Positions 4,820-20,500 of a DNA stretch of 64,000 nucleotides are shown here, one piece after another. The position numbers and the translations under genes are program-made. The stretch lies in sequence record SRR20825006_870; one strand, 5' to 3'. The notes below the pieces were generated by a model. The model was given only the letters and a program-made list of their open reading frames with translations. It was not told the origin of the DNA and made no database searches. Positions within the stretch are counted from its first letter, which is position 1. Every line of letters begins with the position of its first letter.

Positions 4820-5188
4820 ATGCAAATTGTACTCGACGAAACACATGACTTGATCGCCGCAGAAAAAGTAGACGGTACAAAGGTTTACGATGTCGCAGGC
4901 GAAAAAATGGGCACGGTAAAATCCGTGATGATCAATAAGCGCACTGGTAAGGTGGCGCACGCGATCCTGTCCATTGGCGGCTTCTTGGGCATGGGTGAAG
5001 ATTATCACACCGTGCCATGGGAAAAGCTTGATTATGACACTGACCTTGGTGGTTACAAGCTTGATGTGCCGGAAGAACAATTGAAGTCAGCGCCAACCTT
5101 TTCAGCTGAAGAAGTGACCGCGCTGAATGATCGCGAGTTTGAACATCGCATCTATCATCACTACGGCACACCGCCCTATTTTATCTAA
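4820..5188 (+). CDS. PRC-barrel domain protein
   Basis: LIAAEKVDGTKVY..G.V..VMI.K..GKV.HA.LS.GGFLGMGE.YH.VPW..L.YD; GAGGA RBS supports ATG 4820 over the ORF-track start 4796. Confidence 0.88.
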   Translation: MQIVLDETHDLIAAEKVDGTKVYDVAGEKMGTVKSVMINKRTGKVAHAILSIGGFLGMGEDYHTVPWEKLDYDTDLGGYKLDVPEEQLKSAPTFSAEEVTALNDREFEHRIYHHYGTPPYFI

Positions 5189-5197
5189 CAGACACAA

Positions 5198-5226
5198 GCC
5201 ACTGCGCCAATTTTTGGCGCGGTGGC
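5198..5226. terminator. Intergenic stem-loop
   Basis: GCCACTGCGCCAA-TTT-TTGGCGCGGTGGC; no U-tract, so it may be a stabiliser rather than a terminator. Confidence 0.4.
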
Positions 5227-5247
5227 ACTATGTCATAGGAGCGAAAA

Positions 5248-5433
5248 ATGCCTGCAAAATCCAAAGCGCAGCAGAAAGCGGCTGGCATGGCCTTGGCCGC
5301 GAAACGCGGTGAAATGAAAGTCGGTGACCTGCAAGGTGCCGCCAAGGAGATGTATGACAGCATGAGCGAAGAAGAGCTGCGCGATTTTGCTGAAACCAAA
5401 CATGACAATAAGCCAGAGCACGTGGACAATTAG
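5248..5433 (+). CDS. DUF3008 family protein
   Basis: MPAKSKAQQKAAG.AL.AKRGE..L.GA.KEMYDSMSE.EL.DFA.TK signature; AGGAG RBS. Confidence 0.88.
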   Translation: MPAKSKAQQKAAGMALAAKRGEMKVGDLQGAAKEMYDSMSEEELRDFAETKHDNKPEHVDN

Positions 5434-5454
5434 CCCACGTGCCCGCTTTATTTC

Positions 5455-7494
5455 TTAGCGCAGGCTGGCTTCAATGTTGCCGCCATCAACCGTCATGATA
5501 TGCGCGGTGGTGCGAGCGGCCAACGCCAGCGCCACAAAGGCATCCGCCACATGGCCCGCTTCAACTTCACGCTTCAGCAAATTACCCGCCATATAGCTTT
5601 CCGCACTGATATTGCGAGACTTTGAACGGCTTTCGATAAACTCATCGGTGAGCAAGCCAGAGCGGATACGGTCTGCATTGACGCCATTTACCCGAATGCC
5701 CAGCTCGCCCAGCTCAAGCGCAAATTGTTTCACCAAGAAGAAGGTCGCTGCTTTCGGCAAACCATAGGCGCCGAAATCCTTGCCCGGGTTAACCGCTTGC
5801 TTGGACACATTGAACAAAATCTGCCCACCAGCGCTTTGCACCTGCATCACTTTTGCAGCGGCTTGCGCGATTTTCTGGTGCGAGAAAAAGTTCAATTCAA
5901 AGCTATTGCGCAATGTGTCCTGATCCATATCCAACATGGATTTTGACCACGCAGCGCCTGCATTGCTGATCAGAATATCAATGCCGCCAAATCGGCGCAC
6001 CATGGCGTCCACGGCCTGTTGCGGGCCTTCAGCGCTGCACAAATCAATCACCGCGCCATCATGGTCCATGCCCAAACTGCCAAGTGCAGTCATAAGGCTG
6101 TCTTGATCGCGGTCCACCAAAAAGATATTCGCACCTTGGTCTTTGAAAGCTTTGGCCGTGGCCAAGCCGATCGCGCCTGCGCCGCCCGTTACCAACACGG
6201 CTTTGCCCTGCAATGGTTTAGGCTTGGCTTTGCCCAATTTGGCCTGCTCCAATGACCAATATTCCATATCGAACAGATCATCTTCTTTGATTGGATAAAA
6301 GCCGCTATTGGCTTCGGCCCATTCCATCACTTGGATGGTCTGCGTGCCCAAATCAGCCGCAATGCGGGCGGCGGAGGCGTTGGTACCTGCGCCAACCAAG
6401 CCGAGGCCAGGCACCCAGAAAAGGTTTGGCGTTGGCACCAGCATGGTTTTCTTGTCGCTCACCCGCGCATCCTGACGGGCGAAATAGGCTTTGTAGCTTT
6501 CCACAAACGCATCAATGGCAGCATCAACGCTGGCTTGGTCGTCACTGGCGATAATGGTGGGGAAGCCTTTGGTGCGGATCACATGGTCTGGCGTGGCAAC
6601 GCCGCGCTTGGCCAAATCGCCCAAATCATCGCGGGTCAAAAAGCTCAAAATCTGATCATTGGCGCGCAAATCCAAAAAGGGAGCTGCCTGATCCTGATTG
6701 CCCGTATAGGCCTTCATAGCGCGAGCCAGGCTCGCACGAATTTTTGGCAAAATGCTCTTCGCGCTGATTGTTGGGCTGGGTGCCGCCGCAGGCTTTGCGG
6801 CACGCGCATTAAACCAAGCTTCAACCGCACTCACATGTTCAACCATTAACTCATAAGAGCTCTTGGCGTCTGGTCCGAAGGTGAAGTGGCCATGATTGAT
6901 CAAATGCAGCCCTTCAACATTTGGGTTTTGATCAAAAATATCGGCTGCGACTTTGGCCAGCTCGAAGCCGGGCATAATGTATGGCACCAGCGCGACCTTA
7001 TCGCCAAAAATCTCTTTCACCACCTCTTCCACATTCGGCATATTGGCCAAGGCCAACATGGCCGTGGCGTGGGTGTGATCAACAAATTTATGTGGGATAT
7101 AGGCGTGCAGCAATGTTTCTACCGACGGATTTGGTGAAGTGCTGTCCAGCAAGTTGGAGCGCTGCAAATTCACCATATCCTCATCAGATAGGGCTGGCAA
7201 TTCGCGCAGCTTATTGAGCGGTTCAATTTGCACGCCGGGCAGGCCCGCCGCTTCAATGGTTTCAAGATCCCAACCACTGCCTTTAACGTGCAGAACATCA
7301 ATTTCATCGCCAAAAATATTGGGCCGTTTGACCTTAACAGACGTGTTGCCGCCCCCATGCATAACCATGTCAGGGTCTTGACCAATCAATCGGGATGTAT
7401 AAACCCTCAATGCCAGTTGACGATCTGCTTCCTCTGGGCCAGCATTATCGAGAAAAGATTGCGCGTCTTGTTCGTTCCAGAGATTTTTTACCAC
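5455..7494 (-). CDS. Bifunctional class II aldolase / short-chain dehydrogenase (RhaD/YuxG-like fusion)
   Basis: HGGGNTSVK, KGSGWDL, PSVETLLH, HTH, NHG, TPDHVIRTK, EYWSLEQAKL, then SDR motifs TGGAGAIG and YGLPK; probable GTG start at 7494. Confidence 0.88.
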   Translation of the reverse strand: MVKNLWNEQDAQSFLDNAGPEEADRQLALRVYTSRLIGQDPDMVMHGGGNTSVKVKRPNIFGDEIDVLHVKGSGWDLETIEAAGLPGVQIEPLNKLRELPALSDEDMVNLQRSNLLDSTSPNPSVETLLHAYIPHKFVDHTHATAMLALANMPNVEEVVKEIFGDKVALVPYIMPGFELAKVAADIFDQNPNVEGLHLINHGHFTFGPDAKSSYELMVEHVSAVEAWFNARAAKPAAAPSPTISAKSILPKIRASLARAMKAYTGNQDQAAPFLDLRANDQILSFLTRDDLGDLAKRGVATPDHVIRTKGFPTIIASDDQASVDAAIDAFVESYKAYFARQDARVSDKKTMLVPTPNLFWVPGLGLVGAGTNASAARIAADLGTQTIQVMEWAEANSGFYPIKEDDLFDMEYWSLEQAKLGKAKPKPLQGKAVLVTGGAGAIGLATAKAFKDQGANIFLVDRDQDSLMTALGSLGMDHDGAVIDLCSAEGPQQAVDAMVRRFGGIDILISNAGAAWSKSMLDMDQDTLRNSFELNFFSHQKIAQAAAKVMQVQSAGGQILFNVSKQAVNPGKDFGAYGLPKAATFFLVKQFALELGELGIRVNGVNADRIRSGLLTDEFIESRSKSRNISAESYMAGNLLKREVEAGHVADAFVALALAARTTAHIMTVDGGNIEASLR

Positions 7495-7532
7495 GAGGCC
7501 GTCCGTCCAATTTTTAGGGATGATTTTTTGTA

Positions 7533-7563
7533 ATTTGACAAATGTTAGTAACATCTGTCAAAT
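7533..7563. promoter_or_regulatory. Putative SorC-family operator in the divergent promoter region
   Basis: 31-bp near-perfect palindrome ATTTGACAAATGTTA-G-TAACATCTGTCAAAT containing TTGACA on both strands. Confidence 0.7.
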
Positions 7564-7581
7564 AGAAAAAAGAGGGGAATT

Positions 7582-8559
7582 ATGGCATACGGCAAAAGGC
7601 GGGCTTCTGGCCAGGTGAGTGGTGATGAAATTGTGGTGGAAGCCGCATGGCTTTATTATCATGATGGGCTGAACCAAAACGAAATTGCCGACCGGCTGGA
7701 TGTATCACGCGCCACTGTTGTGAATTATTTGCAGGAAGCGCGGGAGAAAAATTACATCCGCGTCACCATGGCACCTGATGTGTTTATGGGCCATAAGCTT
7801 TCCCACCAATTGCGCGAAAAATTTAACCTGAAAGCCGCCTTCATTGTGCCCAACGGGCAGGGCGATATTCAAGCACGATTAACCCGTGCGGCGCGGGGCG
7901 CGGCAGAGTGGTTGCCAGACTTGGTGGCACCCGGCGACAAGTTGGGTGTGGCGTGGGGCCAAACCATTTATGAAATGGCCGAACTGCTGGTTTCCTCTGC
8001 TAACGTCACCATCCCCGATGTGGAAGTGGCGCAATTGGTCGGCTCCATGGCAACACCATATGGCTTTACCGCTGAAATTTGCTCCGCCCATCTGGCGCAA
8101 GGACTCGGCGCTGCCTGTATCAATTTGCACGCCCCGGCCATTGTGACCAATGTGGAGTTGGCGCGACAATTGCGGGCTGAGCCGATCATCAAAAATCAAC
8201 TGGCGGCCTTGGAGCAATGCAACAAAGCAGTGTTTGCCGCTGGCTCCGTCAACGCCAATTCTCATGTGGTGATGAGTGGCATTGCCACCGAAGATGATTT
8301 GAAAACCTATGTCGATAAGGGTGCATGCGGTGTGCTGTGTGGTCGCTTTGTGGATCAAGCGGGCAAGCCTGTGCATGGGCCACTGGACGACCGGATGATC
8401 GGCATTGAGTTGGAAAAACTCACCCACCTCGAAACCGGCTTGCTGGTTTCCGTTGGCGAAGATAAGGCGCAAGCCATGGCGGCGGTGATGAATGGGGGCT
8501 ATGCCACCCATTTGGTGACAGATGCTGAAACGGCGCAGCTCATCCTTGCATTAGACTAA
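7582..8559 (+). CDS. SorC/DeoR family sugar-binding transcriptional regulator
   Basis: AAWLYYHDGLNQNEIA..L.VSRATV HTH; GVAWGQT sugar-binding domain; HLVTD C-terminus. Confidence 0.92.
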   Translation: MAYGKRRASGQVSGDEIVVEAAWLYYHDGLNQNEIADRLDVSRATVVNYLQEAREKNYIRVTMAPDVFMGHKLSHQLREKFNLKAAFIVPNGQGDIQARLTRAARGAAEWLPDLVAPGDKLGVAWGQTIYEMAELLVSSANVTIPDVEVAQLVGSMATPYGFTAEICSAHLAQGLGAACINLHAPAIVTNVELARQLRAEPIIKNQLAALEQCNKAVFAAGSVNANSHVVMSGIATEDDLKTYVDKGACGVLCGRFVDQAGKPVHGPLDDRMIGIELEKLTHLETGLLVSVGEDKAQAMAAVMNGGYATHLVTDAETAQLILALD

Positions 8560-8585
8560 GCAGAACAATCCAAGCCAAATTGAGT

Positions 8586-8613
8586 AAAAAAGGGCGCAAC
8601 CTGAGTTGCGCCC
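8586..8613. terminator. Intrinsic terminator between the convergent regulator and mtnA
   Basis: AAAAAA-GGGCGCAAC-CTGA-GTTGCGCCC (U-tract on the minus strand). Confidence 0.7.
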
Positions 8614-8622
8614 CATTCGCAT

Positions 8623-9717
8623 TTATTCCTGCTCAGGGAATAGGCTTTTTAGTCCTTCATTAGATGCGGCACATACACCGCGCTCTGTGATCAAACCAGT
8701 GATCAACCGTGCAGGTGTCACATCAAAGGCGGGGTTGCCGCCCGGTGTTGCATCCGGTGAAATTTGCACCCAATCGCGCTCGCCATTTTCCAGCTTGCCA
8801 TAAACATGGGTCACTTCGCGGCCATCGCGTTCTTCAATCGGAATTTCCTTCACGCCGTCATTCACCGTCCAATCGATGGTGGGTGAGGGCAGGGCCACAT
8901 AGAACGGCACATTATTGTCTTTGGCGGCCAGCGCCTTCAAATAGGTGCCGATCTTGTTGCACACATCGCCTTGCGCGGTGGTGCGGTCTGTCCCCACAAT
9001 CACCATGTCCACTTGCCCGTGCTGCATCAAATGGCCGCCCGCATTATCGACGATCAAAGTGTGCGGCACCCCATGGCTTGCCATTTCCCAGCTGGTCAAT
9101 TGTGCGCCTTGGTTGCGGGGGCGGGTTTCATCCACCCACACATGCACTTTAAGGCCTTTTTCAACCGCGTGATAAATGGGCGAGGTGGCGGTGCCCCAGT
9201 CCACAGTGGCGAGCCACCCCGCATTGCAATGAGTTAAAATATTGATCGTTTCACCAGGGGCTTTCTTCGCCGCAATCTCTTCAATGAACTTGAGGCCGTT
9301 TTGGCCGATGGCGCGATTGATCTCTACATCTTCATCGCAAATTTCAGCCGCCAATTTATAGGCCGCAGCCGCCCGTTCCGCTGGCGCAATAGCGCTGAGG
9401 TGGGCTTTGGCGCGGTCCAACGCCCAGCGCAAATTGATAGCGGTGGGGCGGGTTTCGTTCAAAATTTCCCATGAAGCATCGAGATTTTGGTCAGATGGAT
9501 CATTGGCCATAGCCAACGCCATGCCATAGGCGGCGGTGGCGCCGATCAATGGTGCGCCACGCACCCACATATCCTTAATGGCCACAGCCGCATCTTCACG
9601 TGATTTCAGCTCCACCACTTTCAGCTCGTGCGGCAACAAGCGCTGCTCGATGATTTTGACGGTCTGTTGATCATCCCCCAACCAAATGGAGCGATAATGA
9701 GTGCCATCTATTTTCAT
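8623..9717 (-). CDS. mtnA: S-methyl-5-thioribose-1-phosphate isomerase
   Basis: [52 protein letters not shown]. Confidence 0.96.
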
Positions 9718-10982
9718 AGTAAATTGTCCTTTCTGACCGCGCGCGCAAGCTCGGCGATTTGATGTGGGGATTTATAAGCGTCACGTGAGATCACGATTTG
9801 ACGGCCAAACTGCAGGGCCCGTGCCTCGCAAGCGGCGCGCAAATCTACGTCCTCAATGCTGTCGAGCTCCATAATGTGGGCAAGGCCCAAAATGCGGCGG
9901 TGCATTTCAATGCCGCCAAAGCCTAGCGCATCTGACCAGATTTGGTTCAAGCGATCTGTAAGCGCTTGTTCAGAGGCAAGATTGTGGCCCTGATCTTCAT
10001 AAAGCCGTTTGTCATAAAGAATGCCAGTGCGCTCCGTGCGCCACAAATGGCTGAACTCTTCTTCAAAATGATGCCAGATGTCGCACGTGACATCCAAAAT
10101 CCATTGCGCATAATCATCACGCGCGCCTATAGACGCTTCATGACCATCCTGCGCGAAGAACGCCATGTAGAAATTGCCCAGCAACATGCCAATGTCGAAG
10201 CCGATGGGGCCATAGGTGGCAAATTCAGGGTCGATCACCACGGTGTCACTTTCGGTGACCATAATTGAGCCCGTATGCAAATCGCCATGCAACAGCGTTT
10301 CAGCATTGTTGCAGAATTTGGCTTTGAAATGCTGTGCGGCAACTTTCATGTCAATGTCAGCGCGCAAAGTGGCCACAACACCATCCAATTGCGGGCTGGT
10401 GTGGCGGTTCATCTCCGCATCGAAATATGGATCGGTGAACACAAGATTTTCGGTGATGTCACACAGTTCAATATTGTCAGCAAAAAGCGCCAAGTCTTTT
10501 TTGCGCTCTTTCGTGTCCATAGACAGATCAGAGGCGCGGAACAGGGTACGGGCACAAAATTTGCCCATCACCTCGGCCAGGTTGTCGTGCTTGATCCCGT
10601 CGCGCAAGCTGTTGCGCAAGATCACATGCGGGGTCATGAATTGCATCACGATCAGCGCTTGCGATTCGTCGAAATGATAAACCTCAGGCACATCTTCCGG
10701 CGCATATTTAGCTTGGCGAATAAGCGCGTGATATTCAAAGAAAGCCCGCTTTAGGGGCAACGGCCAGCTATCGCCCACCAGCCGCACATAGGGCAAGGCC
10801 TGCTTCACAATCGCCTGGCCATTTGGGCCGGTGACAATAAAGACAAGGTTGAGGTTGCCGTCGCCAACTTCTTGCGCCGACCAGCGCGTGGCGTCAGGCC
10901 CAACTTTTTCTTTCAAGATCTCCAAATGGCCAAGTTTTTCGCCAATTGTGTCTACATTTAATGGTTCATATGGATTGCTCAC
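9714..10982 (-). CDS. mtnK: S-methyl-5-thioribose kinase
   Basis: [43 protein letters not shown]; overlaps the mtnA start by 4 nt. Confidence 0.96.
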
Positions 10983-11088
10983 AATATCCTCCCAATGCGC
11001 TGGTCACGCTAACAAATTCAGGGGTTAGGGTGACATGCCGAGCGCAAAACGCCAAACACATATTGCCCCATGATTTGCAATTTAAATG

Positions 11089-11116
11089 TCAAATGTCAAT
11101 ATCGTTTGACATTTGA
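11089..11116. promoter_or_regulatory. Putative operator between mtnK and the ABC operon
   Basis: Perfect inverted repeat TCAAATGTCAA-N6-TTGACATTTGA. Confidence 0.72.
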
Positions 11117-11154
11117 TGCGAAATGGATTTATCGTGCCGCTATCGGAGGAGTTT

Positions 11155-12690
11155 ATGGCTGGAATACCCATCAAAATTCGCGGGCTTGAAAAGCGTTTTG
11201 CGGCCAATCGTGTGCTGCGGGGCGTGGATTTAGATATCCCTGCGGGCAAAGTAACAGTATTGATGGGCGCCAATGGGGCGGGAAAATCCACCTTGGTCAA
11301 AATCATCTGCGGGCTTTATGCCGCCGATGCGGGCCAAGTTGAATTAAATGGAAAGCCCTTCGCACCAACCACACCCTCAGAAGCGCTGCAAGCGGGCATT
11401 GTGACCGTCCACCAAAATATCAATGATGGTGTGGTGCCGGATTTGGATGTGGCGTCCAACCTGATGCTGGATTGGCTGGCTAACCCGAAAAGCGCACCCG
11501 TGCTCAACCCGCGCAAAATCCGCCGCTCTGCGGAAGAAATTGCGGCAAAGCTGGGCCTCAATTTCGATATGAATATGATGGTGAGTGACCTCACCTTGGC
11601 GGATCGGCAATTGGTGGCCATTGCCCGCGCCATGGCCCATGAGCCAAAACTAATGATTCTGGATGAGCCGACCAGCTCGCTCTCCGCTTCTGAAGCCGAG
11701 CGGCTTTTTGAGCTGGTGGAGAAGCTGCGTGAAGGCGGCGTTGCCATTCTTTATATTTCTCACCGCATGTCCGACATTCGCCGTGTGGCGGACCGCATTG
11801 TTTCTATGCGCGATGGCACAATTGTGGGCCAATATGAAACTGAGCCACTAGATTATGAGGGCGCGGTAAACGACATGCTCGGCCACACCATGACTGATGT
11901 AAACATCAAGGTGCAAGCGCCAGGCGACAAGGTTTTGGAGCTTCAGGATTTGCAGCTTAAGCCTGAGAGCAAGCCAATCAATCTCACCGCGCACCGCAAT
12001 GAGGTGATTGCCATCACCGGTTTGGTGGGCGTGGGTAAAACTCAGTTGACCGAAGTGCTTTTCGGCCAAGCAGCGGCAGCAGGCGGCACAGTGCGCCTAA
12101 AAGGCAACAGCTATGCGCCTAAATCCGCGCGTGATGCGATCAATCAAGGCGTGTTCTTGTGTGCGAAAGACCGCGGCACAAATGGTGTGGTGCAGGATTT
12201 TGATATCAACCGCAACATCACATTGCCCTTCCTTTCTAGTCTTTCGACCCTGGGCTTTGTGCGCCGCCGTTCTGAATATCGCATCACCAATGAGGCCATC
12301 AATAAGCTGGGCATTGTGTGCCAAAGCGCCAATGACGAGATTGGCACACTTTCTGGCGGCAATCAGCAAAAGGTGATGGTGGGCCGTTGGCTCTCACACC
12401 CCAGTGATGTGCTGATTTTGGACGAACCGTTCCAAGGGGTGGATATCGCCGCCCGGCGCGACATTGGCACAAAACTGCGTGAGACCGCAAAGGATCGGGC
12501 GACCATTGTTTTGGTGGCTGAACTGGACGAAGCCCTAGAGATTGCAGACCGCATTTTGGTGATGGCTGAATTCACCATTGTGGGCGAGCACAAAAATGAA
12601 AATGTCGATGTGGACCTGATCTTGGAGCAAGTTTCAGGCGCGGCGGCACCTCAAGATCTACAAGAACAAAAAGAAGGGGCTGCTCGATGA
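11155..12690 (+). CDS. Sugar ABC transporter ATP-binding protein (RbsA-like, two NBDs)
   Basis: GANGAGKS, LDEPT, YISH, LSGGNQQK; GGAGGAG RBS before ATG 11155. Confidence 0.92.
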   Translation: MAGIPIKIRGLEKRFAANRVLRGVDLDIPAGKVTVLMGANGAGKSTLVKIICGLYAADAGQVELNGKPFAPTTPSEALQAGIVTVHQNINDGVVPDLDVASNLMLDWLANPKSAPVLNPRKIRRSAEEIAAKLGLNFDMNMMVSDLTLADRQLVAIARAMAHEPKLMILDEPTSSLSASEAERLFELVEKLREGGVAILYISHRMSDIRRVADRIVSMRDGTIVGQYETEPLDYEGAVNDMLGHTMTDVNIKVQAPGDKVLELQDLQLKPESKPINLTAHRNEVIAITGLVGVGKTQLTEVLFGQAAAAGGTVRLKGNSYAPKSARDAINQGVFLCAKDRGTNGVVQDFDINRNITLPFLSSLSTLGFVRRRSEYRITNEAINKLGIVCQSANDEIGTLSGGNQQKVMVGRWLSHPSDVLILDEPFQGVDIAARRDIGTKLRETAKDRATIVLVAELDEALEIADRILVMAEFTIVGEHKNENVDVDLILEQVSGAAAPQDLQEQKEGAAR

Positions 12691-13706
12691 GCGAAACCCG
12701 TGTGAACAAAAAATCCATGTCATTGACAGATTATGCCATCCGTTATGGCTTTGTGGCCTTGCTGGTTGGCCTTGTGGTCTATTTCAGCGTGGCGGCAGAA
12801 GGTTTTGCCAGCCCCTATAGCGCGGTGTTCATTTTCCAATCTGTGGCCATCACTGGTATTTTGGCTTTGGGCGTTACTGCAACATTGGTTGTGGACGGGT
12901 TTGACCTTTCCATCGGGGCGGTGGCCACATCAGCATTGATGCTTTCTGCCTATGTGATGGTGGTGATGGAACAAAGCGCACTGGTGGCTGTGGTTGCCTG
13001 TTTGCTGATGGGCGCCCTCGTGGGCCTGATCAATGGGTTTTTGATTGTGCAAATGCGGGTGCCAGATCTTTTGGCCACATTGGGCATGATGTTCTTGCTG
13101 ATCGGCCTGCAGCGCATTCCGACCGAGGGCCGCTCTATCGCCACAGGCATGAGCTTGCCTGATGGTTCAACGGCGGCCGGCAGCTTTTCGCCAGAATTTT
13201 TGGCGCTCGGTCGTCACCGGTTTGACTTCTTCATCGACAATTTGATCCCGGTTTCCGTGGTGTTCTTGATTGTCATCGCCATCGGCATCTGGCTGTTCCT
13301 GGAATATACCCGCTATGGCCGCGTCATGTATGCCATTGGCTCCAATGAACGCGCTGCAAGCTTAGCTGGCGTGCCCGTGAAGAAATACAAAATCATTGCC
13401 TATATGATTTCAGGCGTTTTGGCGTCAGTGGGCGGCATCTTGCTGGCCGCACGCTTGGGCCGTGGCGACATCGCCTCAGGCAACAATTTGCTGCTCGATT
13501 CTGTAGCGGCGGCGCTGATCGGCTTTGCCGTTCTGGGTGCTGCCAAACCAAACGCATTCGGCACGGCGGTAGGCGCTTTGTTTGTGGGCATTTTGCTCCA
13601 AGGCCTCACCATGATGAATGCCCCTTATTACACCCAGGACTTTGTGAAAGGCGGCGTGTTGGTTGTTGCGCTCATGTTCACATTTGCTCTTTCAAATAGA
13701 CGCTAG
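12687..13706 (+). CDS. Sugar ABC transporter permease (RbsC-like)
   Basis: Multiple TM helices, GFDLSIG, ATLG, GRVMYAIGSNERAASLAGV EAA-type loop. Confidence 0.92.
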   Translation: MSETRVNKKSMSLTDYAIRYGFVALLVGLVVYFSVAAEGFASPYSAVFIFQSVAITGILALGVTATLVVDGFDLSIGAVATSALMLSAYVMVVMEQSALVAVVACLLMGALVGLINGFLIVQMRVPDLLATLGMMFLLIGLQRIPTEGRSIATGMSLPDGSTAAGSFSPEFLALGRHRFDFFIDNLIPVSVVFLIVIAIGIWLFLEYTRYGRVMYAIGSNERAASLAGVPVKKYKIIAYMISGVLASVGGILLAARLGRGDIASGNNLLLDSVAAALIGFAVLGAAKPNAFGTAVGALFVGILLQGLTMMNAPYYTQDFVKGGVLVVALMFTFALSNRR

Positions 13707-13760
13707 GCCCGACCACCCTAGATCGTTCAACAAAGCGGTCGATTAAATCGGAGGAACCAA

Positions 13761-14807
13761 ATGAAACTAACAAGACGCATGTTTGCTAAACTGCTCGCAG
13801 GGGCGTCCCTTGCAGCATCTAGCTTCGTAGGCTTGGCCCATGCGGCCGATATGCCTGCGCCATTTGATAATGCTGGCGATGTGAAAATCGCGTTGGTGCG
13901 TTATTTGTCTACAGGTGACTTTTTCCAAGCCTATTTGTCTGGCGTGGAACGTCAATCTGCTGCTTTGGGCGTTGACTTACGTGTGTTGGACAGCCGTCAA
14001 GACGCCGCTTTGCAGGCAGACATGGTTGATCAAGCCATCGCCTTGGGCGTGGACGGCATCATCGTGCAGCACGGCCTGACAGAATCTATGCAAGAAGCAG
14101 TGCAGCGCGCTGTAGATGCGGGCATTAAAGTGGTGGCTTTTGACGTGAACGTTGAAAACCCAGCCGTGCCGCAGATTGAACAATCTGACCGCGACTTGGC
14201 CCGATTGGCCTTGGAGCAAGCGATTGCTAACAATGGGGAAAGCTGGAAAGCTGGCTATGTTTATGTACCAGGCATTGCACCGCTCGATCGCCGCAACGAA
14301 ACATGGGTAGAGTTTAAAGAGCGCTATCCTGGCATCGACGAAAAAGCCCAGTTCGGTACATTGGACAACCCAATTGCCAACTCAAACGCCAACCAAGCCC
14401 GTTCAGTTTTGTCTGCAAACCCAGACATTACTGTGATGTTTGCGCCATATGACGAATTCGCCAAAGGCGTGAAAATCGCCGTTGACGAAGCTGGTATGTC
14501 AGACCAAGTGAGCATTTATTCTGCTGACGTTTCAACATCTGACATCGCAGCAATGCGCGAGCCAAACAGCGCGTGGAAAGCCACTGCGGCAACCAACCCA
14601 GCTGTTGTAGGTGAAGTTTCTGTGCGTGCATTGGCCATGATGTTGGCTGGTGAAAACCCAGGCGCAAGCGTTGTGGTGCCACCAACCTTGATCACACAAA
14701 AAGATCTGTTGGAAAAAGACATCAAAAATATGGAAGAGCTGAGCGAGAAATTGCCACAGTTCGCCCATGCGCCAGTGGCTGTGCCTGAGTGGATGCCATT
14801 GCCATAA
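13761..14807 (+). CDS. Sugar ABC transporter substrate-binding protein; probable ligand methylthioribose or deoxyribose (from context)
   Basis: Tat-like signal MKLTRRMF..AHA; periplasmic binding protein type I pattern (AIALGVDGII, AGIKVVAFD). Confidence 0.85.
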   Translation: MKLTRRMFAKLLAGASLAASSFVGLAHAADMPAPFDNAGDVKIALVRYLSTGDFFQAYLSGVERQSAALGVDLRVLDSRQDAALQADMVDQAIALGVDGIIVQHGLTESMQEAVQRAVDAGIKVVAFDVNVENPAVPQIEQSDRDLARLALEQAIANNGESWKAGYVYVPGIAPLDRRNETWVEFKERYPGIDEKAQFGTLDNPIANSNANQARSVLSANPDITVMFAPYDEFAKGVKIAVDEAGMSDQVSIYSADVSTSDIAAMREPNSAWKATAATNPAVVGEVSVRALAMMLAGENPGASVVVPPTLITQKDLLEKDIKNMEELSEKLPQFAHAPVAVPEWMPLP

Positions 14808-14844
14808 TTTAAGGGTCTACCTTAAAAAGACGCAACCCTTTGAC

Positions 14845-14887
14845 TGGGGCGATCTGTCGGGCAGCACCCGTCGGTCGCCCCATTTTT
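14845..14887 (+). terminator. Stem-loop with U-tract after the binding-protein gene
   Basis: TGGGGCGATC..CGGG-CAGCA-CCCG..GGTCGCCCCA-TTTTT. Confidence 0.55.
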
Positions 14888-14901
14888 GTTTGGAGATCAA
14901 T

Positions 14902-15345
14902 ATGCTCAAAGGCATAGATGCAACACTGTCCGCCCACCTTGTTTATCTGATGATGCAAATGGGCCATGGCGATGAAATCGCCATTGTTGACGCCAACTTC
15001 CCGGCGCATTCAACCGCGCTTGAAACCGTTTCTGGCGAATTGGTTGACCTGCCTGCTATGGACGCACCAACCCTTATCGAAGCGATGATTTCGCATTTCC
15101 CGTTGGATGAATTTTACGACTTTGCCGCATGGCGCATGGAAATTGATGGCGCGCCAACCGAATTGGGCGAGGTGCACAACCAAGTGTTTACGCTGTTGGA
15201 AAAGGCCAAGCCAGAGGGCGCCAAATTAGGTTCGCTTGAGCGCCAAACCTTCTATCGGCAAGCCAAAAATTGCTTTGCGGTGGTGCGTGTTGGCGAGATG
15301 CGTCCGTTCGGGTGCTTTATCTTGCGCAAGGGTGTGATTTTTTAG
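14902..15345 (+). CDS. RbsD/FucU family sugar mutarotase / pyranase
   Basis: MLKGID..MGHGDEIAIVDANFP..ERQTFY..GE.RPFGCFILRKGV; GGAG RBS supports ATG 14902. Confidence 0.9.
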   Translation: MLKGIDATLSAHLVYLMMQMGHGDEIAIVDANFPAHSTALETVSGELVDLPAMDAPTLIEAMISHFPLDEFYDFAAWRMEIDGAPTELGEVHNQVFTLLEKAKPEGAKLGSLERQTFYRQAKNCFAVVRVGEMRPFGCFILRKGVIF

Positions 15346-15374
15346 CCATTTTGCAGCGCTTCGATCTTTATTTA

Positions 15375-15402
15375 TCAAATGTTATATGATACTGACATTA
15401 GT
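15375..15402. promoter_or_regulatory. Putative operator upstream of the transketolase-RLP operon
   Basis: TCAAATGTTA-N8-TGACATTAGT, same arms and spacing as the 11089 site. Confidence 0.62.
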
Positions 15403-15431
15403 AATAATTGATGTATTCACGCCAACTTTGA

Positions 15432-16373
15432 TTGGGGAATCTGGTGAAGAATAAAAAAACCACTGAAGAAGTCGCGTTGGGCATTCGCCGCCGCGTTTTT
15501 GAACATTCCATGCGCAACAATGGTGGCTATTTGAGCCAAGCTTGTTCCGCGGCTGAGCAATTGGCGTGGCTTTATAATGAAGCCCTGAATTTGGGCGAAC
15601 CCACCATGCCCATGATCCCGCCACCATTTGGCGGCGTGCCAGCCCCCGGCAATGATGATTATGTGACCGGCGCGGGCTATAACGGCCCGTTTGAACCGCA
15701 ATATGATCGTCTGTTCATCGCGCCAGCGCACTATGCTTTGGTGGCCTATGCTACACTGATCGAGGTGGGGCGCATGGCCGAAGAAGGGCTGGAAATGTTC
15801 AACAAGGACGGCTCGTCAGTTGAAATGATTGGCGCCGAACATTCCCCAGGCATGGAAGTGCACAATGGCACATTGGGCATTGGCCTTTCCACCGGCGCGG
15901 GCCTTGCCTATGGCCGCCGCTTGCGCGGCGACAGCGGCGAAGTTTGCGTGTTCATGTCAGACGGTGAAGTGCAAGAAGGCCAGACATGGGAAGCCATTCA
16001 AGCCTGTGCACACCACGGCATTGATAATGTGTGGGCTATTATGGATGTGAATGATCAACAATGTGACGGCGCCATGTCTTCCGTGATGGAAGTGCGCGAC
16101 ATCGCCACCAAAATGCGGGCCTTTGGCGCCACCGTGGTGGAAATTGACGCCCATGATTTGAATGCCATGCGCGAAGCCAAAGCTGAGCCCCATGAAGGCC
16201 AGCCATTGATCATTCTTGCCCATTCCTCGCCCACCAAAGGTATGGAATTCTTGCAGCGGCGCTTCCCGCGTTTGCACTATGTGCGCTTTAAGTCTGAAGA
16301 AGAACGCGATGAGATGAACCAATCTATCGCTAAAGAACTGGGCATTGATCCGGTTCAATTTGACACGCATTAA
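15432..16373 (+). CDS. Split transketolase-like enzyme, N-terminal ThDP-binding subunit (atypical)
   Basis: DRLFIAPAHY, GTLGIG, SDGEVQEGQTWEA..N ThDP motif, TKG; start uncertain (TTG 15432 or GTG 15444). Confidence 0.85.
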   Translation: MGNLVKNKKTTEEVALGIRRRVFEHSMRNNGGYLSQACSAAEQLAWLYNEALNLGEPTMPMIPPPFGGVPAPGNDDYVTGAGYNGPFEPQYDRLFIAPAHYALVAYATLIEVGRMAEEGLEMFNKDGSSVEMIGAEHSPGMEVHNGTLGIGLSTGAGLAYGRRLRGDSGEVCVFMSDGEVQEGQTWEAIQACAHHGIDNVWAIMDVNDQQCDGAMSSVMEVRDIATKMRAFGATVVEIDAHDLNAMREAKAEPHEGQPLIILAHSSPTKGMEFLQRRFPRLHYVRFKSEEERDEMNQSIAKELGIDPVQFDTH

Positions 16374-16387
16374 GGGAGTAAACTGAG

Positions 16388-17392
16388 ATGGTTGAAATGG
16401 TAACGCGCCCTTATGCGAGCGCTTTTGAAAAATACGCACTGGCCAATAAAGATGTGATCTGCATGTCTGCAGATTTGACATCATCTTGCGAAATTGATGG
16501 CTTCCGCGATCGGCACCCTGAACAATTTATGTCCATGGGCATGGCCGAGCAAAATATGATGAGCTTTGCTGGTGGCTTGGGCCTTGCAGGCTATCGCCCC
16601 TTCATTCACACCTTTGGTGTGTTCACCTATCGTCGGCCCTATGACCAATTGATGGCGTCTATCGCTTACCCGCGCCGCAAAGTGCGGATCATGGGCTTCT
16701 TGCCCGGCGTCACCACACCCGGCGGCATGACCCACCAAGCGATTGAAGATATTGCCATTATGCGGGCCATGCCCAACATGTCGATTTTGGAAACAGGCGA
16801 CGCGACGGAGGTTGAAAGCCTTTGCGAAGCGGCAGATTCAATTGATGGTCCGGTTTATTGCCGCGTATTACGTGGCTCGGTGCCGCGCTTGTTCGACACG
16901 CCAATCAAGGTTGGCGAAATGCGCGAACTTTCCGCCGGGGATGATGTGCTTGTGGTGACCGCAGGCATCACCACAGAAGAAGCCCTGCGCGCCAAAGCCG
17001 CGTTGGCTGGGGCAGGCGTTTCCATTCGTCATTTGCACCTTCACACACTGAAGCCGTTCGACTCCGAGCGTTTGCTTGACCATTTGCAATCGGTCAAACA
17101 TGGCGTGATCACCTTGGAAAACCATGTGATCAATGGTGGTATCGGCTCGCTGGTGGCTGAAACTATTGCGGAAGCGGGCATTGAGAAAAAGCTGGTGCGC
17201 CTTGGCCTGCAAGACACCTATGCCCATGGCGGTTCGCGCCCTTATTTGATGCGCTATTATGGCTTGGATGCATTGGCCTTGGTGCGTGGCATTGAAGGCC
17301 TGATGAACATCGAAACCAATATTGATGCGGACGATTTGGATGCGGTGCGTGTTGATGCCGTGCACTCAAGCGCGAAAGCGGAGGCGCTTTAA
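16388..17392 (+). CDS. Split transketolase-like enzyme, C-terminal subunit
   Basis: SADL, MGMAEQNM, GG.THQAIED, GPVY.R, LKPFD, TLENH..GGIGS. Confidence 0.88.
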   Translation: MVEMVTRPYASAFEKYALANKDVICMSADLTSSCEIDGFRDRHPEQFMSMGMAEQNMMSFAGGLGLAGYRPFIHTFGVFTYRRPYDQLMASIAYPRRKVRIMGFLPGVTTPGGMTHQAIEDIAIMRAMPNMSILETGDATEVESLCEAADSIDGPVYCRVLRGSVPRLFDTPIKVGEMRELSAGDDVLVVTAGITTEEALRAKAALAGAGVSIRHLHLHTLKPFDSERLLDHLQSVKHGVITLENHVINGGIGSLVAETIAEAGIEKKLVRLGLQDTYAHGGSRPYLMRYYGLDALALVRGIEGLMNIETNIDADDLDAVRVDAVHSSAKAEAL

Positions 17393-17395
17393 CCC

Positions 17396-18517
17396 ATGGA
17401 TCGGATGCGCGTTACCTACCAGATCAATGCCCAAAGCAATGATGAAGCCTTGGAGCGGGCGCACAATATCGCGTTGGAACAAACCGTTGAGATCCCGCGC
17501 GATGTGGTGCCGCAAGGTTTCATCGAAGATGAGATTTTGGGCAAGGTGGAAAGCTGCGGGCAAGCCAGCGATGGGCAGTTTGAAGCCGTGCTGTCTTATA
17601 GCCCGGAAAGTGTTGGCACAGAGCTGACCCAATTGTTCAATGTGGTGTTTGGCAACTCCTCTATCCAAAAAGGATTGCAAGTCACCAACATTGATTTGGG
17701 TGCCAGCCTTTCTAAGCAGTTCCCCGGCGCACGGTTCGGCATCAAAGGCGTGCGTGAACGTTCTGCGACGCCAAAGGGCGGCTTGATCTCGCCCGTATTG
17801 AAACCGCAAGGGTCAAGCGCGGACGGGCTGGCGGAAATCGCCTATCTCTGCGCGGTGGCTGGGGCCAACATCGTGAAAGAAGATCATGGCCTTGTGAACC
17901 AGCCTGCTGCACCGTTCCAAGAACGGGTGGAAAAGATTTCCAAAGCGGTGGAGCGCGCAAACAAAGAAACCGGCCAAAGCTGTCTCTATTTGCCAAATAT
18001 TGGTGGCCATTTTGCCCACCTGATCGAAGATGCACAGTTCGCCAAGCAAGCGGGTGCAGGCGGCATTTTGCTGATGCCGGGGCTTTTGGGCTTTGACATC
18101 GTCAATCACTTCGCCCGCGATGCAGCGTTTGATTTGCCAATCATGACCCACCCGAGCTTCCTGGGGCCATATGTCTTGTCAAAAGACACAGGTTTCACCC
18201 ACGCCATCATGTTCGGCCTGTTGCAGCGCTTGGCCGGGTCTGACATTTCGGTATTCCCAAATGTGGGTGGTCGCTTTGGCTTCTCGGTCGAGGAATGCAC
18301 TTCCATAGCAAATGCATGTCGCGCGGCAGACGGCATCGGCCAACCGATTTTCCCAAGCCCGGGTGGCGGCATGTCCAAAGACCGTGCGGGTGATATGCTC
18401 AACATGTATGGTGACGATGTGGTCTATCTTTTGGGCGGCAGCTTGCTGCGTTATGGCGATAAAATCGGCGAAGGCATAAAAGATATGCGCGCCGCACTCG
18501 AAGCCGCACGCAAATAA
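17396..18517 (+). CDS. rlp: RuBisCO-like protein (form IV, DeepYkr / R. rubrum-like motif set)
   Basis: IALEQT, FGNSS, FPGARFGI.G.R, LKPQG, VKEDHG, HP, GGRF, PGGGM, LLGG; several residues needed for carboxylation are replaced. Confidence 0.9.
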   Translation: MDRMRVTYQINAQSNDEALERAHNIALEQTVEIPRDVVPQGFIEDEILGKVESCGQASDGQFEAVLSYSPESVGTELTQLFNVVFGNSSIQKGLQVTNIDLGASLSKQFPGARFGIKGVRERSATPKGGLISPVLKPQGSSADGLAEIAYLCAVAGANIVKEDHGLVNQPAAPFQERVEKISKAVERANKETGQSCLYLPNIGGHFAHLIEDAQFAKQAGAGGILLMPGLLGFDIVNHFARDAAFDLPIMTHPSFLGPYVLSKDTGFTHAIMFGLLQRLAGSDISVFPNVGGRFGFSVEECTSIANACRAADGIGQPIFPSPGGGMSKDRAGDMLNMYGDDVVYLLGGSLLRYGDKIGEGIKDMRAALEAARK

Positions 18518-18535: not shown

Positions 18536-18560
18536 ATGCGCGCCGAACAGGCGCGCATTT
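18536..18560 (+). terminator. Stem-loop after rlp
   Basis: ATGCGCGCC-GAACA-GGCGCGCAT-TT. Confidence 0.55.
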
Positions 18561-18661: not shown

Positions 18662-19204
18662 ATGACCACCCGTGACATCGTTTTGATCGCACTTTTTGCC
18701 GCCATTATGGCTGTTCTCGGGGTGTTTCCCCCAATCACCTTGCCAGTAATCGCCGTGCCCATCACCGCGCAATCCTTGGGCGTAATGCTCGCTGGTGGCG
18801 TGCTTGGCGCGAAGCGTGGGGCGCTTTCAATGATCCTTTTCTTGGCGCTGGTCGCCGTTGGTTTGCCGCTTCTTTCCGGCGGTCGCGGCGGCGGCGGCGT
18901 GTTCTTTGGCGCTAGCGGTGGCTTCTTGATAGGCTGGGTCGTGGCTGCCTTTGTGGTTGGCCTGCTGGTGGAGCGCTTCTGGGATAATCTCAACTATATC
19001 AATGCCTTTATCGCTAGCGTGGTGGGCGGCATTGTGTTGCTTTATGCCATTGGCATTCCGTGGATTTCTGTGGTCGCAGGCATTTCGCTCGGCCAAGCCT
19101 TTACCGGCTCCATGGGCTTTATCCCTGGCGATTTGGTCAAGGCCGTGATCGCCGCATTGGTGATCGTGACCGTTTCAAAATCCTACCCGATCATTAAGAA
19201 ATAG
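18662..19204 (+). CDS. bioY: Biotin ECF transporter S component BioY
   Basis: ALFAAI, VPITAQSL..LG.KRG..GLP.LSGGRGG..GFLIG..FIPGDLVK. Confidence 0.92.
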   Translation: MTTRDIVLIALFAAIMAVLGVFPPITLPVIAVPITAQSLGVMLAGGVLGAKRGALSMILFLALVAVGLPLLSGGRGGGGVFFGASGGFLIGWVVAAFVVGLLVERFWDNLNYINAFIASVVGGIVLLYAIGIPWISVVAGISLGQAFTGSMGFIPGDLVKAVIAALVIVTVSKSYPIIKK

Positions 19205-19217
19205 CGGCGTTGCGCCC

Positions 19218-19880
19218 ATGATTGAAATTGTCTCGGCCAGTTTGGTGAAAAACGGACGGACCATCTTGTCCGACCTATCGGCCAAACTGACCGAACGCCG
19301 CATCGGCATTATCGGGCATAATGGCTCGGGCAAGTCGAGCTTTGTCAAAATGCTCAATGGGCTGGAGCCATGTACCAGTGGCCAAGTGCGTGTGGGCGAT
19401 GCAGACATTGCCGAACACCGCGCCGGCGTCGGCTTTGTGTTTCAAAACCCGGACAATCAATTGGTGATGCCGCTGGTGGAAGAGGACATTGCCTTTGGCC
19501 TGAAAAAGTCCGGCCTCAGCAAAGCAGAGATCAAAGCGCGCAGCGATGCTTTGCTTGAAAAATTCAATCTCACCCATCTGCGCGAACGCCTCACCCACGA
19601 GCTGAGCGGCGGCGAGAAACAGCTGATCGCGCTGATCGGGGTGCTGATTATGCAGCCCGAACATATTATTCTCGACGAACCCACCACCTTGCTAGATTTG
19701 CGCAATCGCGCCATGCTGATCTCCATGTTGGACAAGCTGGAGCAGCAATTGATTATCGTCAGCCACGATCTGGATTTGATGGCGCAAATGGACCGGCTTT
19801 TGCTGATCCATGACGGCAAATTGCATGCGGATGGTGTGCCGACTGAGATCATGCAAACCTACCGTAACCTCTCATGCTGA
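19218..19880 (+). CDS. bioM: ECF transporter ATPase (BioM)
   Basis: GHNGSGKS, FVFQNPDNQ, LSGGEKQ, LDEPT; follows bioY. Confidence 0.85.
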   Translation: MIEIVSASLVKNGRTILSDLSAKLTERRIGIIGHNGSGKSSFVKMLNGLEPCTSGQVRVGDADIAEHRAGVGFVFQNPDNQLVMPLVEEDIAFGLKKSGLSKAEIKARSDALLEKFNLTHLRERLTHELSGGEKQLIALIGVLIMQPEHIILDEPTTLLDLRNRAMLISMLDKLEQQLIIVSHDLDLMAQMDRLLLIHDGKLHADGVPTEIMQTYRNLSC

Positions 19881-20500
19881 TCAGCCTATATAAGCCCGGC
19901 AACAGCCTTGTGCATCGCGCCCCGGCGGGGTGGAAAATTGTGCTGCTTTTTATTTTTTGCACGGCACTGTTTCTGGTGCAGAACTGGTGGTTTCTGGGGG
20001 GGGCGATTGCGCTGGTGCTGACCAGCTATCTGCTAGCGAAATTGCCGCTATCTCTGGCATGGCAGGCGGTGCGCCCGGCGCTTTGGGTGCTGGTGCTGAT
20101 CTTTTTGGTGCAGCTTTGGTTAAATGATTGGCAGTTCGGCCTGTATGTGGTGCTGCGTTTTGCGATCATGATCGTGGCCGCAACCCTGCTGACCCTGACC
20201 AGCAAAACCAGCGAGATGATTGAAGGCATCGAGCGCAGTGTCGGCAAATTATTTGGCGCGGATATTGCGGAAAAAGTGGGTCTCGCCTTTTCACTGTCTT
20301 TGCGGTTTATCCCCATGGTGCGCGAAACCTATCAGGAAGTGCGCGAGGCGCAAAAGGCGCGCGGGTTGGGCCGCAATTGGCGGGCGCTGATCACGCCAAC
20401 CATGATCCGCACGTTGAAATCCGCCGATGATATTGCCCAAGCCATTGATGCCCGCTCTGCCGGGGCACCTTTGGGCGAGAAAGCGCCGCCCCATGATTAA
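19874..20500 (+). CDS. bioN: ECF transporter T component (BioN/CbiQ family)
   Basis: SLVHR.P..K, LRFIP, AQKARG and AIDARS XRX motifs. Confidence 0.85.
   Translation: MLISLYKPGNSLVHRAPAGWKIVLLFIFCTALFLVQNWWFLGGAIALVLTSYLLAKLPLSLAWQAVRPALWVLVLIFLVQLWLNDWQFGLYVVLRFAIMIVAATLLTLTSKTSEMIEGIERSVGKLFGADIAEKVGLAFSLSLRFIPMVRETYQEVREAQKARGLGRNWRALITPTMIRTLKSADDIAQAIDARSAGAPLGEKAPPHD

Follow-up and report, generated by a model that had tools for sequence, protein, structure and literature searches.

A conserved gene pair for a RuBisCO-like protein and a split transketolase-like enzyme in a putative sugar-salvage cluster of a marine bacterium

The 64,000-nt stretch of record SRR20825006_870 analysed here (the window) comes from a marine bacterium and holds, at 5455-18517, a cluster of eleven genes in three transcription units. 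Open reading frames, Pfam and NCBIfam placed all eleven where the initial annotation, made from the bare sequence, had put them. In this cluster a form IV RuBisCO-like protein (RLP) is encoded directly behind the two subunits of a divergent split transketolase (TK)-like enzyme dependent on thiamine diphosphate (ThDP), in company with the kinase MtnK, the isomerase MtnA and a sugar importer. The RLP-TK locus appears to be a new and widespread form of the known shunts that salvage by-products of S-adenosylmethionine. The genes are listed below with the family evidence for each.

5455-7554, minus strand: class II aldolase fused to a short-chain dehydrogenase/reductase (SDR), 699 aa; NF006192 881 bits, cut-off 639
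7582-8559, plus strand: sugar-phosphate-sensing repressor of the SorC/DeoR(Bacillus)/LsrR type; N-terminal helix-turn-helix, PF04198 191 bits
8623-9717, minus strand: MtnA, 5-methylthioribose-1-phosphate (and 5-deoxyribose-1-phosphate) isomerase; TIGR00512 435 bits, cut-off 279
9714-10982, minus strand: MtnK, 5-methylthioribose/5-deoxyribose kinase; TIGR01767 487 bits, cut-off 275
11113-12690, plus strand: ATPase of the ABC importer, with two ATP-binding domains (Pfam)
12687-13706, plus strand: permease of the ABC importer, ribose/CUT2 type; PF02653 142 bits
13761-14807, plus strand: periplasmic sugar-binding protein of the importer; PF13407 117 bits
14767-15345, plus strand: RbsD/FucU-family mutarotase; PF05025 107 bits over residues 48-191
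15432-16373, plus strand: TK-N, diphosphate-binding subunit of the divergent split transketolase-like ThDP enzyme; Pfam 52 bits
16388-17392, plus strand: TK-C, transketolase pyrimidine-binding and C domains of the same enzyme; best solved match 6yaj, 193 bits
17396-18517, plus strand: form IV RLP; RuBisCO large-chain family PF00016 60 bits, cut-off 30

The importer, mutarotase, TK-N, TK-C and RLP genes form a single operon divergent from mtnK. Its last three genes are as tightly packed as the initial annotation had described, with a gap of 14 nt followed by one of 3 nt from the TK-C stop to the RLP start.

We searched 301 genomes of the host's order for the RLP, fetched ~10 kb on each side of the matches and probed these regions by tblastn with the window proteins. 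Close relatives with 45-98% identity (clade A) were found in 24 of the 301 genomes, and RLPs with 33-38% identity (group B) at 11 places in 11 genomes, one of which (G231) carries clade A too; the remaining matches in the order, at ~25% identity, were other RLPs and RuBisCO. TK-N and TK-C lay directly beside the RLP gene in 18/24 clade-A loci versus 0/11 group-B loci, and cupin-part probes detected a cupin gene immediately 3' of the RLP gene in 9/11 group-B loci versus 0/24 clade-A loci. The pair mtnK and mtnA was present in 17 of the 24 clade-A loci. In two of the six clade-A loci without an adjacent TK (L034 and L035) the aldolase-SDR gene follows the RLP gene, mtnKA and the importer are present and the TK is located elsewhere in the genome; a third (L038) is a contig end, and in the other three (L048, L051 and L052) the RLPs accompany another ABC system. 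At whole-genome scale, TK-N orthologs (≥62% identity) occurred in 22 of the 301 genomes and all 22 carried a clade-A RLP, so that 22 of the 24 clade-A carriers have the ortholog; the TK was not beside the RLP but elsewhere in the genome in G045, G296, G087 and G011. The TK-N ortholog of G045 (C6:53297-54217), 31 kb from its RLP gene, holds one in-frame TAG, which may be decay or a sequencing error.

Searching species genomes with an alignment of TK-N extended these observations and revealed at least 542 stretches that encode TK-N relatives. Neighbourhoods were counted in the best 80 of these, which come from named species, mostly Hyphomicrobiales and Rhodobacterales, and overlap in part with the 24 clade-A loci. 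The counts were as follows.

RLP present: 67/80 TK-N loci
RLP directly adjacent to TK-C: 65/80
MtnK: 57/80
MtnA: 56/80
Importer parts: 58-61/80
Regulator: 53/80
Aldolase-SDR: 31/80
Mutarotase: 20/80
Cupin: 0/80

Besides a molybdoenzyme module, considered below, these 80 loci showed no further conserved genes within 3 kb of the cluster. The association of RLP, split TK, mtnKA and importer, which the initial annotation had read from a single locus, was thus strongly conserved across the 24 clade-A and 80 TK-N loci. Its statement that the window lacks a cupin also stood for cupins of the 1-methylthioxylulose-5-phosphate methylsulfurylase type, since tblastn with seven cupin parts, taken from RLP-cupin fusions, gave a best E value of 0.01 over 21 residues.

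The best solved relative of the window RLP was 3qfw (210 bits), with MtnW enolases and other RLPs at 78-122 bits. MtnW models gave 185 bits against a cut-off of 409 and 137 bits against a cut-off of 514, and the OiaX model of apiose-type RLPs gave 62 bits against a cut-off of 700, compared with 433-437 bits for OiaX-like RLPs of the same order. These scores, together with a separate branch in the tree, ruled out an apiose-type (OiaX) or MtnW-type RLP; a grouping with the apiose type, which would have told against the initial annotation, was not observed. The structure 3qfw, presumably RLP1 of Rhodopseudomonas palustris, is a member of group B, as shown by its 347 and 443 bits with two RLPs that adjoin a cupin, versus 210 bits with the window RLP. 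The latter falls into one radiation with 3qfw and the cupin-linked RLPs but into a clade of its own, 3qfw standing for the RLP1 type of Rhodospirillum rubrum and R. palustris in this comparison.

Among 1.8 billion representative sequences there were 1603 RLP matches, and many of those with 35-46% identity were longer proteins. Ten long representatives were tested, and seven were RLP-cupin fusions and one an inositol-monophosphatase-RLP fusion; in the latter (P0191, 726 aa) the inositol-monophosphatase-family domain is N-terminal to a DeepYkr-like RLP. RLP-cupin fusions made up 26 of the 130 representatives kept for tree building. A FastTree tree of 171 rows, built without L053 (truncated or frameshifted) and without the 20 of 150 representatives that covered fewer than 330 residues, gathered the TK-linked RLPs into one clade of 27 rows with support of 95. 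The sister of this clade comprised 11 representatives, five of them cupin fusions, and the rest of the radiation held 21 further cupin fusions and nine cupin-adjacent loci. A quick IQ-TREE run on 79 rows gave support of 100 to a core made up of 18 TK-clade rows and one row without a label, and 86 to the whole TK clade, with the long-branch row L055 intruding. This row is a second RLP of G231 (contig C3), 38% identical and on a long branch, with neither cupin nor TK nearby and an unstable tree position. By either tree, the TK-linked RLP clade lies within a family whose other branches are cupin-linked.

We then compared active-site columns between 27 clade-A and 35 cupin-linked RLPs, with two true RuBisCOs as rulers and with the columns named by RuBisCO residue number. 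Both sets were identical at the columns for K175, K201, D203, H294, G380/381, G403/404, E60 and N123, and had in common three substitutions specific to RLPs, E204 to His, R295 to Pro and K334 to Arg. Only three positions switched cleanly between TK-clade and cupin-linked proteins, namely 128 (G/R), 134 (V/A) and 323 (G/A, the S379 position). The window RLP has the RuBisCO large-chain fold without the carboxylase residue set. Because the clade sits among cupin-linked DeepYkr-like RLPs and has kept the active-site columns, the clade-A RLP probably still isomerises 5-(methylthio or deoxy)ribulose-1-phosphate. In PMC5893883, the R. rubrum and R. palustris RLP1 proteins are described as DeepYkr-clade 5-(methylthio)ribulose-1-phosphate 1,3-isomerases encoded beside a cupin methylsulfurylase (RPA2169/RPA2170), and RLP1 forms 1-(methylthio)xylulose-5-phosphate.

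The best solved relatives of the TK-like subunits were 6yak_AAA (TK-N, 117 bits) and 6yaj (TK-C, 193 bits), which form the split transketolase of Carboxydothermus hydrogenoformans, followed by human transketolase and 1-deoxyxylulose-5-phosphate (DXP) synthases. On the transketolase model NF004559 they scored 137 and 198 bits against a cut-off of 488, split subunits reaching only a part-score, and TK-C scored 147 bits on the dxs model. We aligned the residues to human numbering and assessed their conservation in 19 family members. The N subunit keeps the Mg/diphosphate motif SDGE...DVN, and the C subunit keeps Glu54 in GMAEQN (human E366), Ser33 (S345), Arg162 (R474) and His116, at the Q428 position that is His in bacterial enzymes; His100 (H77) and His282 (near H258) are kept as well, and Arg7 (R318) probably so. 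The SDGE...DVN motif and Glu54 were invariant in the 19 members. Three changes were likewise family-invariant, with Tyr33 for human H37, Leu105 for H416, and TPGG for GEDG, in which D424 becomes Gly. H37 is the His that holds the donor C1 hydroxyl, H416 the phosphate-binding His and D424 the Asp that reads the sugar C2 hydroxyl of the acceptor. Transketolases, and DXP synthase with them, use the phosphate-binding His and the GEDG Asp for the xylulose-5-phosphate/glyceraldehyde-3-phosphate part. As further invariant features, TK-N carries an insertion of ~30 residues and TK-C a tail of ~28 residues. Because the cofactor residues are kept and the substrate residues changed, the protein is predicted to be a working ThDP enzyme whose substrate channel has been reshaped, and not a canonical transketolase.

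The aldolase-SDR fusion carries a class II aldolase domain at residues 52-246 (75 bits) and an SDR domain at residues 451-692 (Pfam), and stays below the cut-off of the rhamnulose-1-phosphate aldolase/dehydrogenase (RhaEW) model TIGR02632. Its orthologs (≥58% identity) were found in 13 of the 301 genomes, 11 of which are clade-A carriers with the gene mostly adjacent to the cluster. In genomes without RLP and TK, orthologs with 47-59% identity adjoin MtnA (L072, L075 and L076), and in L074 (G201) the aldolase-SDR gene adjoins MtnA, MtnK and the importer, again without RLP and TK. The core of mtnKA, importer and regulator therefore occurs with aldolase-SDR alone (L074), with RLP and TK alone or with both, the pattern expected of two parallel outlets for the MtnA product. 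As predicted from its genes, aldolase-SDR with mtnKA and importer is by itself a complete branch resembling the dihydroxyacetone phosphate (DHAP) shunt, a point absent from the initial annotation. The pattern resembles that of R. palustris, which passes 5'-methylthioadenosine (MTA) through two shunts side by side, one with RLP and cupin and one with an aldolase (PMC5893883). A fused aldolase-dehydrogenase did not appear in the portions of the DHAP-shunt papers examined.

Statements on whole genomes rest on five carriers, namely the nearest comparison genome G001, whose RLP is 98% identical and which carries the same cluster (locus L031), and four others. Markers of canonical methionine salvage were missing where sought: MtnB exceeded its cut-off in 0/5 carriers (the window was not scanned with mtnB, mtnC or mtnD models), acireductone dioxygenase (ARD/MtnD) matched in 0/5 and the MtnW models stayed far below cut-off on the window RLP, MtnC and MtnX not having been searched. 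No outlet for the MtnK/MtnA product besides the cluster's own was found in the five carriers, in which MtnB and ARD/MtnD were searched. Canonical MtnN was over cut-off in none of the five and MtnP in one, and DXP synthase and O-acetylhomoserine/O-acetylserine sulfhydrylase were each over cut-off in all five. The lack of MtnN and the single MtnP, together with the importer and mutarotase, therefore point to external methylthioribose or 5-deoxyribose rather than to housekeeping salvage.

The TK is not exclusive to RLP contexts, which the initial annotation had not recorded. Fifteen of the 80 loci lack an RLP gene beside the TK, and 12 of these have a gene for a 770-aa molybdoenzyme divergent from TK-N (L133, L149, L153, L156, L158, L159, L160, L162, L163, L125, L129 and L165, at about 5000-10000 in each). 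This enzyme best matched the model for BisC-family S/N-oxide reductases, where its 852 bits fall short of the cut-off of 1017. In nine of the 12 loci there were in addition a xylulokinase-like FGGY kinase (XylB 286 bits, below the cut-off of 380) and a Zn-dependent alcohol dehydrogenase, and CUT2-type sugar importer components were present in 4/4 loci scanned (L153, L158, L162 and L163). In L165 the molybdoenzyme module and an RLP-importer-mtnKA module both flank the TK pair. A TK tree of 100 rows showed the two contexts interleaved, with at least three changes forced by well-supported branches and six in all, and the TK is therefore one orthologous enzyme in both. The molybdoenzyme context looks like a sugar or polyol pathway that uses the same TK. 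The xylulokinase-like partner suggests that the TK takes a ketose of the xylulose-5-phosphate type, the skeleton that the RLP would make, and the S-oxide-reductase-like partner hints at a sulfur substituent on the TK substrate.

5-Methylthioribose and 5-deoxyribose are the sugars that remain from by-products of S-adenosylmethionine. We lean towards reading the cluster as a repressor-controlled system for the uptake and breakdown of one or both of them, through an aldolase branch beside an RLP-TK branch, and we hold this to be somewhat on the probable side. By family membership, the ABC importer and FucU-like mutarotase deliver the sugar, MtnK phosphorylates it at C1 and MtnA yields 5-(methylthio or deoxy)ribulose-1-phosphate. 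In the first branch, a variant of the DHAP shunt, the aldolase half would split this ketose-1-phosphate into DHAP and (methylthio)acetaldehyde or acetaldehyde, and the SDR half would reduce or oxidise the aldehyde. In the second, the RLP would carry out a 1,3-isomerisation to 1-(methylthio)xylulose-5-phosphate, or to DXP from the deoxy sugar, and the TK-like enzyme, encoded at the operon position where relatives have the cupin methylsulfurylase, would attack the C2 carbonyl and cut the C2-C3 bond, giving glyceraldehyde-3-phosphate and a ThDP-bound C2 unit. For the sulfur substrate our favoured guess is β-elimination of methanethiol from the C2 adduct to leave acetyl-ThDP, because plain aldehyde release would only repeat what the aldolase branch does. 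The next product would be acetate or acetyl phosphate, and the methanethiol would be captured by O-acetylhomoserine sulfhydrylase. Precedents for such a loss exist, in that phosphoketolase eliminates water and sulfoacetaldehyde acetyltransferase eliminates sulfite. The RLP-TK salvage interpretation is supported as far as genomics can support it, and the chemistry is what we infer from it.

Several observations weigh against this reading. The sister relation of the TK-linked RLPs to the clade with RLP-cupin fusions had support of 97 in FastTree and 67 in the quick IQ-TREE run, and the RLPs, in a clade of their own and 33-38% identical to cupin-adjacent RLPs, could possibly catalyse a changed reaction. 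Two clade-A genomes, G069 and G010, are without a TK ortholog. In the molybdoenzyme-context genomes, the RLP was found at E ≤ 1e-30 in 0/5, an empty search that proves little, and MtnK over cut-off in 0/5. The TK-like enzyme lacks both the phosphate-binding His (Leu105) and D424 (Gly), and these losses do not sit neatly with a plain xylulose-5-phosphate-type donor. The 80 loci share no conserved gene for an acetyl-phosphate or aldehyde step within 3 kb of the cluster, and a C2 unit freed as aldehyde would make the RLP-TK branch redundant with the aldolase. Finally, Tyr33, Leu105 and the missing GEDG also occur in six other split TKs of the order (L082-L087, 33-41% identical), and are thus the mark of a broader non-canonical group and not of this pathway.

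The combination of Tyr33, Leu105 and GEDG loss had been considered as a signature of a methylthio substrate and was dropped as common to those six enzymes. On NCBIfam models the six gave generic transketolase matches only, below cut-off. In two cases an OiaX-like RLP is encoded 7-9 kb away (L084:1962-3218 and L085:13953-15212; 433-437 bits, cut-off 700), and non-canonical split TKs linked to sugar clusters with an RLP may form a larger group.

A bolder form of the salvage reading would make the split TK-like protein a ThDP-dependent carbon-sulfur lyase that converts 1-(methylthio)xylulose-5-phosphate into glyceraldehyde-3-phosphate, expels methanethiol and leaves acetyl. The same enzyme would serve a second marine pathway, in which the S-oxide-reductase-like enzyme, the polyol dehydrogenase and the xylulokinase-like kinase feed in an oxidised thioether sugar. 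We offer this combined proposal tentatively and consider it rather unlikely as a whole; if true, it would provide an oxygen- and glutathione-independent recovery of methylthioribose carbon and sulfur. The version put forward by the initial annotation, a true transferase that moves a 1-deoxy or 1-methylthio C2 unit to an aldehyde acceptor or frees it as aldehyde with the C-S bond intact, is in our view unlikely. Genuine transketolases (6yaj/6yak and human TK) are indeed the closest solved relatives, and Glu54, His100, His116 and His282 are kept, but the His that we take to hold the C1 hydroxyl is now Tyr and the Asp presumed to read the acceptor C2 hydroxyl is lost. Aldehyde release would moreover repeat the aldolase branch of the same locus, and transfer would trap the sulfur in another sugar, for which no follow-up gene is conserved within 3 kb.

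Other readings change the substrate or the order of the steps. The cluster might handle another marine 5-modified ribose, such as an oxidised thioether sugar or an arsenic-bearing ribose, the names MtnK and MtnA then being misleading. No internal sugar source stands out (MtnN in 0/5 and MtnP in 1/5 carriers), the dedicated importer and mutarotase point to a nutrient, and the alternative partner of the TK is an S/N-oxide-reductase-like enzyme. We nevertheless think this quite unlikely, as MtnK and MtnA are far over their equivalog cut-offs, nothing points to another substrate, and characterised kinases of the family accept both 5-deoxyribose and methylthioribose (PMC6079011). It is very unlikely that the order is reversed or the steps separate, with the TK acting on the MtnA ketose-1-phosphate or a kinase-made ketose and the RLP on the TK product or a different phosphorylated intermediate. 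The TK genes do stand 5' of the RLP gene in the operon, the TK is found without RLP and MtnK beside the xylulokinase-like kinase, and two substrate-channel residues are unlike those of pentulose-5-phosphate-binding enzymes. Against this order, the RLP phosphate-binding Gly pairs are kept, the RLP accompanies mtnKA and importer in L034 and L035 with the TK elsewhere, and the RLP active-site columns equal those of cupin-linked relatives, which take the MtnA product according to PMC5893883. An anabolic role, in which the RLP-TK pair would supply DXP from 5-deoxyribose for isoprenoids, thiamine and pyridoxal, draws on the 147 bits of TK-C on the dxs model and on the R. rubrum shunt, which ends in DXP in the same source, and is highly improbable. 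An importer-led, repressor-controlled operon looks catabolic, and no ThDP enzyme is needed after DXP. The bypass of DXP synthase was rejected on the genuine DXP synthase over cut-off in 5/5 carriers.

Salvage through parallel aldolase and RLP-TK branches, the reading we prefer, has elements in common with four known systems. The D-apiose systems (OiaX and relatives) likewise combine an RLP and a split TK in one sugar cluster; their TK is an apulose-4-phosphate transketolase. They differ in that the window RLP branches elsewhere, the TK subunits are 33-41% identical and the partners here are MtnK and MtnA. With canonical and split transketolases (C. hydrogenoformans 6yaj/6yak) the enzyme shares the two-subunit layout, the ThDP/Mg motif, the activating Glu and three catalytic His; it departs from them in Tyr at His37, Leu at His416, TPGG for GEDG, the insertion and tail, and low NCBIfam scores. 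The DHAP shunt or 5-deoxyribose salvage (MtnK/DrdK, MtnA/DrdI and Ald2/DrdA, in extraintestinal pathogenic Escherichia coli, Bacillus thuringiensis and R. rubrum) has a similar kinase, isomerase and class II aldolase domain, at times with a sugar transporter and a fucose-mutarotase homolog as here (PMC6079011). Here, however, the aldolase is fused to an SDR (NF006192 family) and the RLP and TK-like pair are added in the same regulon. The MTA-isoprenoid shunt of R. rubrum and R. palustris (MtnP, MtnA, DeepYkr RLP1 and cupin 1-methylthioxylulose-5-phosphate methylsulfurylase) is alike in having MtnA followed by an RLP of ~370 aa from the same radiation with the same active-site columns, and in the aldolase branch alongside in R. 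palustris (PMC5893883). In the window, by contrast, a split TK-like enzyme replaces the cupin, entry is by importer and MtnK in place of MtnP and the RLP belongs to a separate clade.

A literature search agreed with the initial annotation, which had not recognised the route as described. No RLP-transketolase partnering for methylthioribose or 5-deoxyribose was found in the full-text literature, with subscription papers, one thesis on the RLP family and supplements outside the search, and such partnering went unmentioned in the accessible text of PMC5893883, PMC6079011, PMC6302742, PMC7895386, PMC6389311, PMC10663253 and PMC13474568. The last of these, a 2026 review, covers the methylsulfurylase route and the DHAP shunt and is silent on any route through a transketolase in the portion available.

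Elements that could serve control and transcript ends lie between and behind the genes.

7533-7563 (no strand): TTGACA-N15-TGTCAA, an everted pair of TGTCAAAT half-sites between the genes for aldolase-SDR and regulator
8591-8614, minus strand: terminator-like hairpin with a T run behind mtnA; 10 pairs, 7 G-C
11094-11111, within an element at 11084-11114 (no strand): operator-like palindrome TGTCAA-N6-TTGACA, plus a third AAATGTCAA copy
11106-11135 (plus strand) and 11099-11070 (minus strand): divergent promoter-like sites whose -35 boxes are the palindrome arms
18536-18558 (no strand): G+C-rich hairpin directly behind the RLP stop; 9 pairs, 7 G-C

The spacer between mtnK and the importer contains three exact copies of AAATGTCAA, which occurs nowhere else in the 64 kb, and the spacer palindrome, at times with one degenerate arm, was present in 14/14 orthologous loci examined, including the RLP-less L074. 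A repressor bound to the palindrome at 11094-11111 would switch off both divergent operons. Exact TGTCAAAT occurs seven times in the window against 3.3 expected, and seven was reached in 6 of 100 shuffles; the half-site pair at 7533-7563 is a possible but weak candidate for a regulator site. A shared operator before the aldolase-SDR gene was set aside, with everted half-sites alone present and weak statistics, and we do not claim co-regulation. The hairpin at 18536-18558 is the likely end of the operon. The regulator itself scored 206 bits on the DeoR and 146 bits on the LsrR model, both under the NCBIfam cut-offs, and the sugar-binding protein matched the RbsB, RhaS and LsrB models weakly. 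Three gene starts could be refined: ATG 11155, preceded by GGAGG, is the more likely start of the ABC ATPase and ATG 14902 that of the mutarotase, and TK-N may start at GTG 15444.

The flanking genes are unrelated to the cluster, and its borders at 5455-18517 therefore hold. Upstream lie a restriction-modification fusion, an Eco57I/MmeI-type enzyme of 1059 aa at 1119-4298 (minus strand), and a PRC-barrel gene; downstream are BioY/ECF genes and an acyl-CoA-ligase-like gene. The BioY-ECF biotin transporter operon at 18662-20500 (plus strand) begins immediately past the cluster. Biotin synthase produces 5'-deoxyadenosine, and we take the adjacency as coincidence. The closest named relatives belong to Maritalea, the RLP being 92% identical to that of M. 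myrionectae and TK-N 98% identical to that of M. mediterranea.

RLPs are classic enzymes of uncertain or shifting function, and the TK-linked clade is a large one, with the TK partner in 22 of the 301 genomes and TK-N relatives in at least 542 stretches. The question is directly testable, the RLP-TK enzymes being few, soluble-looking and from bacteria that are harmless and culturable. If the pair works as proposed, it would open a third way for methylthioribulose-1-phosphate to be used, next to the aldolase and the cupin, and would add a new reaction type to the transketolase family. It would also account for the use, by many Alphaproteobacteria of sea and soil, of methylthioribose or 5-deoxyribose that other organisms release, with a bearing on the flow of sulfur and carbon in the sea and on the production of methanethiol.

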